A stretch of 64,000 nt of DNA from Candidatus Thiodiazotropha sp. (GTDB lineage: Bacteria > Pseudomonadota > Gammaproteobacteria > Chromatiales > Chromatiaceae), in contig JBFNJI010000046.1 in NCBI GenBank assembly GCA_040793985.1, positions 226-64,225 on the forward strand, written 5' to 3'. Numbering within the stretch: position 1 is the stretch's first letter; each line of letters starts with the position of its first letter. Below, one piece after another: positions 49,003-52,031 of the stretch. The translations under genes were made by a program, and so were the position numbers. The notes below the pieces were generated by a model. That model saw nothing but the letters and a program-made list of their open reading frames with translations. It had not been told where the DNA came from and made no database searches.

Positions 49003-51156
49003 TCAAATCGGGTTCTTTCGGGATTTTCTGCGTTCACGGTATTGTTCCATGTAGTAGAGACTGGGTCCGTCACCGGGATGTTCATCCAGGATGCGCTTGA
49101 ACTTTTCATAGGCAGATTCCCGGTCGCCATGCATCCAATCGGCCAGGGCATTGGCAAAATCGGCATGCAGTCGGCTAAGTTGTGGTGATACCTCGTCACG
49201 CATGGCGGCAACTTCATGGATGGTGATCGGCAACTGCTTGCCGGCGACAACGAACTGTCCCACTTCGCGGGTTGCAATGCCTTTGAGTCCATCCACAACG
49301 GCACCCGATGCCAGAATCGACGTGCCCAGCAGCTTGTTGAGATTTTCGATTCGTGACGTTGTGTTCACCATGTCGCCAACTGCCCTGTATTCGAAATGGT
49401 CTATGGCACCTACATGGCTCATCACCAATTCGCCGGCATGCAGACCTATGCGGGTAAAGAGTTTCGGTTCCAAATTCGATTCTTCCAGCGCTCGATTGAT
49501 CGCCAGTCCCGCTTCACAGGCTAGCTGGTGCAGGCTGTGGTCCGGCTCAGTGGAAGGCCAGATTGCCAGCATCGCATCGCCGACCACATCGGAAACAACG
49601 CCGTTCCTGGCTCTGACCGGTTTAAACAGGATCTCATAGTAGCGATTGAGGTAGTTGTGCAGTTCGACGGGATCGAGATTTTCTGCGAATTTTGTGTAAT
49701 CTTGCGCGTCAGTGGCCAAACAGACACCGAATGCTGTACTGTTATCCGACATCGGCTCCCTTTTGTGTTGCGCGAGCTGATCGATAACATCGCCTGGAAT
49801 ATAGTATCCAAAGAGTTCCCGCAGGCGTTCCCGGCTGCTTCGCATCTGTCGATAGTGCCATGTCTGGCTCAGAATGAGTGCGAACGGGGTTTGCAGTGCA
49901 AGCGGAACGAACCATGGAAGCCAAAGGTTCTGCTGTTTGAAGAGGCTGTAGACCAAGGTGAGATAGAGGGCGGATAGGGTCACTCCGATGAGGATACTAC
50001 GCATCCCGGGAAGCCAGCGCAGTAGCAAGGTGATACCCACACCGTAACCGAGTAGGAGCATCGCCAGGCTGACATGATTCATGGGAGCGAGGGTTTCAAC
50101 TGCGAGCAGGTTGGCAAAGGCGGTGGCGGCGATCTCGACGCCGCTTAGATCCAGGCCATTGGGCTGGGAGTATACGGTATAGAATCCGTCCTTCTGTTTT
50201 GGTTGATAAGTGCCCGCATAGCCGATGAAGACAACCTTGTTTTTGAGTGTGGCGAGCTCGTCGGGAGTGGCTTCCAGAATCTCGGTTATCGGAATTGTAG
50301 GTATTGTTCCAGGTGGGCCATAGAAATTGATGTAGGGGTGGTTGTGGCCGCCATAGAGTGCCAGTAGCGCCCGCAGTCGAGATCGCTGGGATGGGGTGAG
50401 CGATGCCGGCTGGCCTGAGGTAAAAGCCTCCAGCAGACGCCTCTGCAGCGAACTGTCGTTCAATATTCGGCGTGCTGTTCGGAGTTGCGATTGCCACTCC
50501 TTCGGCAGGCTCTGCTGTTCGCCGATAGACTGAAGCAAAGCGTGCAGATGGCTGCCGTCGGGATCTGCTGACAGCTGCAATGCCGCAGCCGGTAGGGACA
50601 TCAAGCTGTTTTCACCGGTAAAAGTCCAGAACCGGCTTACCCTGATCGGAATTTTTGGCAGTACAAAGGGGGCGATGCCCAAGGCGGCCTCCTTTAACTG
50701 TTGCGTCGGCGGAATCAGTCTTTCTATATCCACATGGGTTTGGTTGTCGATGATGCGCTGCTGCTCCAGGTAGGCGACAAGCAGTACGTTTCCGGCACGG
50801 CGCATGGACTTAACCATGGCTTCATTCGCTTCCGCTGAACGCGCATTCTTAAAGAAGATATCGAAGACGATGCCGGCAACCCCGGCTTCCTGCAGCCGAT
50901 CGATCAGGTTGGCATGAATCGAGCGAGGCCATTGTGGTATCTCTTCTCCCAGCCCAAGCTGTGCGGCGGTTTCACCATTGATCGAGACAATGACAACTTG
51001 AGATGGGGGTATTCGGTGGCCACGCAGCTCAAACAGCAGGCTAAGCCCGATATTCTCTTCCCATGAACGGCTGCCTGGCGAAAAGGTGACTACAATCCCA
51101 AACAGGCCGACGACGACACCAAGCCCCAAAGTGCGGAGGATCGCCTCAATTTGCAT
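49003..51156 (-). CDS. CHASE2-domain class III nucleotidyl cyclase
   Basis: CHASE2 (WPRSIHANLIDRL, GIVFDIFF, SGVEIAATAFANLL), 3 TM helices, cyclase core TDAQDYT / VGD / RIGLHAG / GDMVNTTSRIE. Confidence 0.92.
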   Translation of the reverse strand: MQIEAILRTLGLGVVVGLFGIVVTFSPGSRSWEENIGLSLLFELRGHRIPPSQVVIVSINGETAAQLGLGEEIPQWPRSIHANLIDRLQEAGVAGIVFDIFFKNARSAEANEAMVKSMRRAGNVLLVAYLEQQRIIDNQTHVDIERLIPPTQQLKEAALGIAPFVLPKIPIRVSRFWTFTGENSLMSLPAAALQLSADPDGSHLHALLQSIGEQQSLPKEWQSQLRTARRILNDSSLQRRLLEAFTSGQPASLTPSQRSRLRALLALYGGHNHPYINFYGPPGTIPTIPITEILEATPDELATLKNKVVFIGYAGTYQPKQKDGFYTVYSQPNGLDLSGVEIAATAFANLLAVETLAPMNHVSLAMLLLGYGVGITLLLRWLPGMRSILIGVTLSALYLTLVYSLFKQQNLWLPWFVPLALQTPFALILSQTWHYRQMRSSRERLRELFGYYIPGDVIDQLAQHKREPMSDNSTAFGVCLATDAQDYTKFAENLDPVELHNYLNRYYEILFKPVRARNGVVSDVVGDAMLAIWPSTEPDHSLHQLACEAGLAINRALEESNLEPKLFTRIGLHAGELVMSHVGAIDHFEYRAVGDMVNTTSRIENLNKLLGTSILASGAVVDGLKGIATREVGQFVVAGKQLPITIHEVAAMRDEVSPQLSRLHADFANALADWMHGDRESAYEKFKRILDEHPGDGPSLYYMEQYRERRKSRKNPI

Positions 51157-51383
51157 CGGGCTTCCTGCTGCAGGATCGGTGGAGGAGTGGAATTTTTACA
51201 GCGGTCTCCATTGAATTCAACCTGTTAGATGGCATTTTTTCTGTTAAAGTCTTATAAGGCGTTTCCCATTGTGCATCCCGGCCATCTTCTAGGTAACCTG
51301 TGCACGATATATCGCTGAAAGCCAGGACACCGGATAGTCCTATACTTTCAACCGTTTTTAATTAGAGAGTATATAATACGCTT

Positions 51384-52031
51384 ATGATCGAAAACGTCTC
51401 CATTTTCGCCGGTATGGCACCAAGTGACATTGCACTGATTGAACAGCGGATGGTTCGCAGGACCTATCCGAGAAACACTATTATTCTTTCCGAAGGGGAT
51501 AACAGTGATTCACTCTATGTCATTCTCAGTGGCAGAGTGAAAGTCTATTTGAATGATGAAAACGGCAAGGAAGCGATTATCAACTATCAGGAAGAGGGTG
51601 AGTATTTCGGCGAGCTCTCTCTGATCGATGACTACAAAAGATCGGCATCGATCATGACCATGGTTAAGTCGACCGTAGCGATTATGTCGAAGCAGGCCTT
51701 TCATCAGGTGGTAAAGAGCAATCCCGATATAGCTATTCATCTGTTGAAGGACATGGTGCACAGGGTGAGAACCCTGACCGATGAAGTCAAAAGCCTGGCC
51801 CTTTCGGATGTCTATGGACGCTTGAGCAAGACTCTGATGAGCCTGGCAACTGAGCGTGATGACGGTCAACTGGTTATCGAAGGGCACGTAACCCAACAGG
51901 AACTCGCAAACCGGATTGGCGCATCGCGGGAGATGGTGTGCCGCATCTTCAAGGACCTTGTGAAGGGTGGCTATATTACCACCAGTTCCAATCAATTCAC
52001 GATCAATAAACAGCTGCCAGCCCGCTACTGA
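51384..52031 (+). CDS. CRP/FNR-family regulator with cNMP-binding cassette
   Basis: FGELSLIDDYKRSAS phosphate-binding cassette; HTH TQQELANRIGASREMVCR; divergent from the cyclase. Confidence 0.93.
   Translation: MIENVSIFAGMAPSDIALIEQRMVRRTYPRNTIILSEGDNSDSLYVILSGRVKVYLNDENGKEAIINYQEEGEYFGELSLIDDYKRSASIMTMVKSTVAIMSKQAFHQVVKSNPDIAIHLLKDMVHRVRTLTDEVKSLALSDVYGRLSKTLMSLATERDDGQLVIEGHVTQQELANRIGASREMVCRIFKDLVKGGYITTSSNQFTINKQLPARY

Follow-up and report, generated by a model that had tools for sequence, protein, structure and literature searches.

Among the described circuits in which a class III cyclase is combined with a reader of the CRP family, the closest to the locus treated here is the NsrA-CyaK/CyaD1/CyaD2-Clr cascade of the host-associated bacterium Sinorhizobium meliloti, where CHASE2 receptor cyclases signal to the regulator Clr. 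The S. meliloti cyclases carry Lys/Ser at the two positions that specify the base and are reported to make cyclic AMP (cAMP). A FecR domain-containing protein of 1190 residues is encoded directly upstream of cyaK; it is presumably NsrA, the outer-membrane protein that serves the CHASE2 cyclases in the sensing of a plant signal. Here we describe a comparable locus in a stretch of 64,000 nucleotides (the window) from contig JBFNJI010000046.1 of Candidatus Thiodiazotropha sp., a sulfur-oxidising bacterium that lives as a symbiont in the gills of lucinid clams. The locus contains a gene for a CHASE2 cyclase and, divergent from it, a gene for a CRP-family regulator. This cyclase-regulator pair is a dedicated and evolutionarily conserved module, and its messenger is probably not cAMP. 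It may best be regarded as a variant of the Sinorhizobium cascade, with an undescribed specificity pair in the cyclase and a matching CRP subfamily.

Three other groups of systems are relevant for comparison. The cyclase Cya2 of Synechocystis, the sole CHASE2-linked cyclase with a solved structure, is a guanylate cyclase whose specificity for GTP is set by Glu488; the substitution E488K converts it into an adenylate cyclase, and its activity depends on the native C-terminal tail (PMC5995499). In the literature read on Cya2 no CRP partner came up. The cyclases of Rhodospirillum centenum (GcyB/GcyC) and Xanthomonas (XC_0250) are linked, as here, to dedicated cyclic nucleotide readers, namely CgrA, a CRP-family receptor of cyclic GMP (cGMP), and XC_0249. 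Unlike the cyclase studied here, these enzymes are soluble and differ in their specificity pair, the second residue of which is Ala; moreover, CgrA keeps Thr-Ser in its C-helix, and XC_0249 reads guanine by Asn/Glu and drives a GGDEF domain. Finally, the cyclases PfPucC, BcPycC and EaPycC share the class III fold, but these Pucsar and Pycsar enzymes are soluble and belong to phage-defence operons with TIR or transmembrane effectors.

The features of the locus are the following (positions are those of the window):

49003..51156, minus strand: gene of the CHASE2 class III nucleotidyl cyclase, 717 residues (open reading frame call and Pfam)
50080..51093, minus strand: CHASE2 extracytoplasmic sensor domain, residues 22-359 (Pfam PF05226, E 5.7e-31)
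49234..49713, minus strand: catalytic core of the class III cyclase, residues 482-641 (Pfam Guanylate_cyc, E 3.2e-12)
49588-49590, minus strand: codon of Asp523, at the Lys position (alignment)
49384-49386, minus strand: codon of Arg591, at the Asp/Thr position (alignment)
51384..52031, plus strand: gene of the CRP-family regulator, 215 residues, divergent from the cyclase gene (open reading frame call and Pfam)

The cyclase is composed of an N-terminal transmembrane helix, a periplasmic CHASE2 domain, three transmembrane helices, the catalytic domain and a helical C-terminal tail of about 75 residues. The sensor domain, with hydrophobic helices on either side, scores 108.4 bits with PF05226 (cut-off 26.3) and the catalytic domain 46.8 bits with Guanylate_cyc (cut-off 21.9). 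The alignment columns were checked twice, with phmmer against five solved class III cyclases and with MAFFT together with the Lys/Thr cyclases of the same genome and CyaK of S. meliloti, and both agree. Both metal-binding residues (Asp483 and Asp527) and the transition-state pair Asn598/Arg602 are kept with reference to the solved structures and the paralogues, and the class III catalytic domain, a homodimer, is predicted to be intact. Asp523 (in SDVVGD) sits on the Lys position of the adenylate cyclases, a column occupied by Glu488 in Cya2 (2W01) and by Lys in the engineered adenylate cyclase form (6FHT). Arg591 (in EYRAVGD) sits on the Asp/Thr position, where Cya2 has Gly, OaPAC has Thr and the mycobacterial Cya has Asp. 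The pair Asp523/Arg591 corresponds neither to the ATP-specific adenylate cyclases (Lys plus Asp, Thr or Ser) nor to the canonical guanylate cyclases (Glu plus Cys, Gly, Ser or Ala), with which it has only the acidic first position in common. Cya2 is the top natural match among solved structures (E 2.2e-12) and displays the same CHASE2-transmembrane-cyclase-tail layout with an acidic residue at the Lys position; it differs by its Glu/Gly pair and by a Lys two residues before the Gly, whereas the present cyclase has a Glu two residues before Arg591.

The 215-residue regulator belongs to the CRP/FNR family (cNMP_binding PF00027, 84.1 bits; HTH_Crp_2 PF13545, 46.8 bits; Crp PF00325, 29.8 bits). 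However, it obtains only 139 bits with the cAMP-CRP equivalog NF008732, whose cut-off is 266 bits, and it is therefore a CRP-family paralogue rather than CRP itself. The alignment of its residues 27-198 with phmmer is free of gaps in the C-helix, where HRVRTLTDEV faces RRLQVTSEKV of the Escherichia coli CRP, so that Leu131 and Thr132 replace the usual Thr-Ser at the positions of Thr127 and Ser128; MAFFT gave the same result. The ribose-phosphate site (Gly76, Glu77, Arg86 and Ser87) and the pattern R182-E183-x3-R187 of the recognition helix are kept, and the protein terminates with a conserved LPxRY/W tail. An earlier reading of this DNA, made from the sequence only, had proposed the substitutions of the cyclase and, by eye, the Leu/Thr of the regulator. 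It had also named a proper alignment as a means of refuting them; this alignment places them as proposed, with no Lys/Thr at the specificity positions of the cyclase. In ten other Ca. Thiodiazotropha assemblies the cyclase orthologues are 72-83% identical, compared with 92-96% for the regulator across Thiodiazotropha.

The specificity residues are deeply conserved. Asp/Arg is present in all of the 120 nearest homologues of the cyclase, down to 46% identity over the catalytic region. When 1.84 billion representatives were searched exhaustively with HMMER, 680 clusters (at 50% identity) were obtained below E 1e-30. Among the best 150 cluster representatives, 104 have Asp/Arg and the remainder have Asn/Arg, Gln/Arg, Asn/Ala, Asp/Thr, Asp/Ala or Ser/Arg, or are unreadable by pattern match; none of the 131 readable sequences has Lys at the first position. 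The first metal Asp is included in the family motif L-A-[TS]-D-A-x-x-Y-T, and the Ala located two residues before it is found in 180 of 221 family members. The pair Asp/Arg and all four catalytic residues are retained together by 45 of the 48 complete CHASE2-cyclase relatives, which come from about 30 gammaproteobacterial families. The three exceptions are a cyclase with Asp/Ser, a cyclase with Asp/Thr and a CHASE2-like N-terminal region (L081), and a degenerate cyclase (L075) that has lost the catalytic Asn and Arg, has Glu/His at the specificity positions and occurs in a genome without an orthologue of the Leu-type CRP. Concerning the regulator, 54 of 64 orthologues from other genomes have Leu-Thr in the motif R-x-R-x-L-T-[DE]-x-V, including every orthologue that adjoins an Asp/Arg cyclase, and the cyclic-phosphate site G-E...R-S is kept in nearly all of them. 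The six CRP relatives that were looked up all derive from metagenome-assembled genomes, with no named or cultured organism.

These values bear on a first alternative, in which the nucleotide chemistry is beside the point: the cyclase would be weak, promiscuous or a scaffold, and the Leu127-type CRP would act largely without ligand, in the manner of CRP* mutants. T127L and S128I are indeed listed among the E. coli CRP mutants with a higher affinity for DNA in the absence of cAMP, the closest match of the regulator in the PDB is the T127L/S128A mutant of CRP, and the genome that harbours the L075 cyclase, devoid of its catalytic Asn and Arg, also lacks the Leu-type CRP. Nevertheless, 45 of 48 relatives retain every one of the six residues of catalysis and specificity, and nearly all regulators keep the phosphate site, which would not be expected without catalysis and ligand binding; we regard this alternative as improbable.

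The linkage of the two genes was surveyed across 401 gammaproteobacterial genomes, drawn evenly. In 44 of them the catalytic region has a homologue with E 1e-30 or better, and in 31 a close one. The search with the regulator was bimodal, the orthologues aligning over their full length with 40-57% identity and the canonical CRP proteins with about 36% identity over residues 22-203. An orthologous regulator is present in 28 of the 31 cyclase-positive genomes, versus about 40 of the 370 others (Fisher p 3e-21), and in about 22 of the 31, which belong to different families, the two genes are adjacent and nearly always divergent. The dedicated cyclase-CRP module supposed in the sequence-only reading is thus supported. 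In most of the genomes with an adjacent pair, the cyclase gene is followed by a gene for a FecR-plus-TPR protein of about 1130 residues; this gene is absent from the locus in Thiodiazotropha, and a 34%-identical copy is found in the same genome at positions 134038-137262 of contig C9.

The protein encoded upstream of cyaK shows a weak but significant homology to the FecR-TPR proteins, both those of the relatives and that of contig C9. The parallel with CyaD1/Clr that had been drawn earlier is therefore real, and it extends further than proposed, to an NsrA-like gene that stands beside the cyclase gene in most relatives as in S. meliloti. The Thiodiazotropha locus departs from that cascade in several respects: the cyclase and CRP genes are linked but the FecR-TPR gene, whose product has a putative outer-membrane location, is not; Clr, with Thr-Thr, falls into another cluster of CRP proteins; and the cyclases are only about 24% identical. 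By analogy with the CHASE2/NsrA systems, the input of the module would be an extracellular cue. The CHASE2 domain of the membrane cyclase may sense this cue, or one arising in the envelope, and, to judge from the relatives, would probably do so jointly with the NsrA-like, putative outer-membrane protein encoded on contig C9.

Two additional pairs of FecR-like and CHASE2 genes occur in the same genome (contigs C24, 28465-33389, and C25, 26180-30383), one of which is accompanied by a response regulator and by a CHASE2 protein of 891 residues. The FecR-CHASE2 pairing hence recurs within one genome. At another locus (L104, 2418-9920), a relative of the cyclase with Asn/Ala is adjoined by a GAF-sigma54 activator instead of a CRP, the FecR-TPR gene being still present; the reader protein of the module therefore appears to be exchangeable.

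The Leu-type CRPs found away from the Asp/Arg CHASE2 cyclases often adjoin another cyclase. Ten such partners were identified, with the specificity pairs Asp/Thr, Glu/Ala (a HAMP cyclase), Asp/Ala (two cases), Gln/Ala, Gln/Thr, Gln/Glu, Gln/Gly, Glu/Gln and Arg/Glu; none of the ten has Lys. The sole neighbour with Lys/Thr stands beside a variant regulator that has GDRV in place of GERS and Leu-Ala in place of Leu-Thr. As a control, every third Pfam cyclase match was taken from 60 evenly drawn gammaproteobacterial genomes, and Lys was found in 35 of these 40 cyclases. At this base rate the chance of observing no Lys is about 6e-8, the partners being taken as only eight independent families. The CRP subfamily characterised by Leu127 is associated with cyclases other than ordinary adenylate cyclases, and this argument is independent of any rule for reading the residues Leu/Thr or Asp/Arg. 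One of the Leu-Thr regulators adjoins the Glu/Ala cyclase, a pair close to that of the known bacterial guanylate cyclases.

A covariation between the cyclase pair and the CRP pocket, which had been put forward as a check, was looked for and gave no clean rule: Leu-Thr remains constant with partners of the types Asp/Arg, Asp/Ser, Asp/Thr and Glu/Ala. The outliers are an Asp/Thr cyclase with an Ala-Thr CRP and the Asn/Ala cyclase with the GAF-sigma54 activator. Two cyclases (L129, 929-1834, and L145, 6670-8559) display the polarity opposite to Asp/Arg, the residue on the Lys position being Arg and the second specificity residue Glu. The CRPs beside them, related to the regulator subfamily, have Thr-Thr at positions 127/128 (L129) and, in a more distant protein, Leu-Thr (L145).

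The same genome contains a canonical CRP with Thr-Ser (contig C1, 69912-70178; RLNQTSNKV, recognition helix RE..GR) and two Lys/Thr cyclases. Since the paralogue and CRP have the same R-E-x3-R pattern in the recognition helix, a different ligand would be the simplest way to separate the two pathways, and we infer that the module would be insulated from cAMP in this manner. Two further cyclases were noticed in this genome. The first is a soluble cyclase-FHA protein (contig C13, 83760-84722) whose specificity pair is Glu/Arg, with Glu on the Lys position (VVEVVGD ... GRMYGD); it is a second candidate guanylate cyclase. The other is a GAF-cyclase-TIR fusion of 540 residues (contig C10, 141166-142788) with Lys/Thr, in which GD is changed to GT and ASR to SAS; this cyclase is possibly degenerate or of the defence type.

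Another alternative is an additional cAMP circuit with local wiring, or a dual cAMP/cGMP specificity, in which the Asp/Arg cyclase prefers ATP and the Leu/Thr CRP responds to cAMP; the N6 of adenine could for instance donate to Asp while Arg touches N1/N7. The homologous S. meliloti cascade signals by cAMP and Clr takes both nucleotides, Thr132 retains the hydroxyl that contacts the adenine N6 in CRP and Clr, several partners of the Leu-type CRPs have Gln at the first position, as does Rv0386, and public annotation labels the cyclase relatives as adenylate cyclases. However, CyaK and a second CHASE2 cyclase of S. meliloti carry Lys (Lys/Ser), unlike the Asp/Arg family, and no partner of a Leu-type CRP has Lys despite its base rate. 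The strict conservation of a charge-inverted pair is also hard to explain with ATP as the substrate, and the coexisting canonical CRP would bring cross-talk. We hold this cAMP alternative, including its adenine chemistry, to be rather unlikely. The messenger is probably a nucleotide other than cAMP, and the pair very probably does not form an ordinary cAMP circuit.

Among the other nucleotides, cGMP is the most likely messenger, although we would give this identification no better than an even chance. Selection of GTP is favoured because an acidic residue (Asp523) stands at the Lys position and a basic one (Arg591) at the Asp/Thr position: the carboxylate of Asp523 would face N1-H and N2-H of guanine and the guanidinium of Arg591 its O6 and N7, giving 3',5'-cGMP. 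It is known that adenylate cyclases can be converted into guanylate cyclases by engineering, Lys being exchanged for Glu together with Asp for Lys or Cys. A natural acid/base pair is found in PfPucC, a cGMP-forming cyclase in whose model Glu118 and Lys195 occupy the positions of base recognition and read the Watson-Crick edge of guanine; its authors equate these positions with residues 497 and 566 of a rhodopsin cyclase (bioRxiv 10.64898/2026.08.12.744502). PfPucC would thus match the Asp/Arg pair as a precedent for the association of an acid/base pair with cGMP synthesis. The CRP paralogue would then read the nucleotide of the cyclase and bind CRP-like DNA sites, in a pathway chemically insulated from the canonical cAMP-CRP system. 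Whether the whole constitutes an envelope-sensing cGMP module, separate from the cAMP-CRP system of the cell, is in our estimation evenly balanced.

Several observations weigh against this assignment to cGMP. The family is known from sequence alone, every relative looked up being a metagenome-assembled genome, and no characterised Asp/Arg enzyme was found in the literature searched. All proven guanylate cyclases have Glu, the side chain of which exceeds that of Asp by one methylene. The cyclases Rv1900c and Rv0386 lack the Lys and still make cAMP, and the Gln-type partner cyclases resemble Rv0386, which is mainly an adenylate cyclase. The first position of the partners of Leu-type CRPs varies between Asp, Glu, Gln and Arg, and these enzymes maybe do not all make one product. 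On the side of the regulator, T127L of the E. coli CRP is reportedly activated by cGMP (Gorshkova et al., 1995), but the cGMP-specific CgrA keeps Thr-Ser and Clr, with Thr-Thr, responds to both nucleotides, so that Leu-Thr is not an established signature of cGMP; the residues at positions 127 and 128 cannot serve by themselves as a predictor of the ligand. The raised ligand-free DNA affinity of the T127L and S128I mutants mentioned above counts in the same sense. Lastly, a conserved CRP-type box was not found between the cyclase and regulator genes, a good site being present in only two of 20 related loci.

That earlier reading had left the messenger open between cGMP and a pyrimidine nucleotide, cyclic UMP (cUMP) or cyclic CMP (cCMP). 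Its proposal of a non-cAMP nucleotide is supported, indirectly but rather strongly, by the Lys-less partners and the coexisting canonical cAMP set. Of the two candidates cGMP is preferred; the pyrimidine branch obtained no specific support. In such a pyrimidine housekeeping circuit, Asp523 and Arg591 would close the pocket and read uracil N3-H/O4 or the edge of cytosine, and the CRP would respond to the product. Uracil N3-H/O4 mimics guanine N1-H/O6, so that an acid/base pair fits equally well, and Arg extends deeper into the pocket than Thr or Cys. The base pocket of the uridylate cyclase BcPycC uses Asp94 and Arg97, and in the cytidylate cyclase EaPycC, Arg142 lies four residues before the metal Asp146, which is the canonical Lys spacing. 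On the other hand, the Tyr/Phe that occludes the base in PycC enzymes, two residues before the first metal Asp, is Ala in this cyclase, and the uracil-reading Asn of PycTIR, at the position of Ser128 in CRP, is Thr in the regulator. An affinity of the cyclase for the Pycsar profiles was considered and rejected after control with the Lys/Thr paralogues, which score higher (82-84 bits with 12-13 profiles, against 53 bits with two profiles). The locus contains no TIR or transmembrane effector and does not have the architecture of a defence locus; with PycC profiles weaker than on the housekeeping paralogues, it does not fall within the Pycsar/Pucsar defence systems. Pyrimidine nucleotides are consequently an unlikely messenger, and it is equally doubtful that the Asp/Arg CHASE2 cyclases make cUMP or cCMP and that in the Leu/Thr CRPs we have the first transcription factors to read it. 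If this were true, a non-defence, housekeeping pyrimidine second-messenger pathway would be present in about one tenth of the gammaproteobacterial genomes.

The region between the two genes was studied with an alignment of nine Thiodiazotropha intergenic regions and displays the following elements, none of which is assigned to a strand:

51157..51383: divergent promoter region
51231-51250: invariant block of 20 nucleotides, GGCATTTTTTCTGTTAAAGT, identical in all nine aligned regions
51367-51379: invariant block GAGTATATAATAC, unchanged across the nine loci

The block GGCATTTTTTCTGTTAAAGT is flanked by a direct repeat CTGTTA and shows a loose likeness to a sigma-54 -24/-12 element (TGGCAT-N5-CTGT). 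The block GAGTATATAATAC puts a perfect TATAAT six bases ahead of the ATG of the regulator (which ends at 51386). The predicted transcription start site therefore falls on the start codon, which suggests that the mRNA of the CRP paralogue could be leaderless. The scans for CRP boxes revealed no good box in 51157..51383. Boxes of the CRP type (TGTGA-N6-TCACA) are not enriched in the window (20 observed, about 27 expected), and neither a binding site nor a regulon of the regulator can be deduced from the scans of the window and the related loci.

Individual boxes were nevertheless recorded in the window. A perfect CRP consensus palindrome, TGTGACAGGCTTCACA, is located at 39101-39116, inside a carbon-fixation cluster with the following genes, for which no strand is given:

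38017-38823: CbbQ
35414-37804: CbbO-like protein with a VWA domain
41175-42083: LysR regulator
45102-45989: phosphoribulokinase

Through this palindrome, CO2 fixation could be connected to control by cAMP or cGMP. A CRP-type box with one mismatch, AGTGAAAAAGGTCACA, is found at 46733-46748, about 90 nucleotides upstream of an open reading frame of 220 residues (46834-47496) that precedes a polyprenyl glycosylphosphotransferase gene (47775-48521); this box is common to only one other Thiodiazotropha locus (L004). Neither this open reading frame nor the one of 158 residues at 48508-48984, both near the cyclase gene, has a match in Pfam or NCBIfam.

Only a handful of bacterial systems are proven to signal by cGMP. 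If the assignment to cGMP is correct, a large family of receptor cyclases would constitute an undescribed class of guanylate cyclases, defined by Asp/Arg and equipped with its own CRP-type regulator and outer-membrane partner. The biology of cGMP in bacteria would then be substantially larger, and a sequence rule would become available for the annotation of proteins now labelled as adenylate cyclases. Even with cAMP as the product, the link between the Leu127-type CRPs and Lys-less cyclases would be a new and testable regularity. For the uncultured sulfur-oxidising symbionts themselves, the cGMP module would represent a signalling route from the envelope to the genes, analogous to the sensing of the host by rhizobia.

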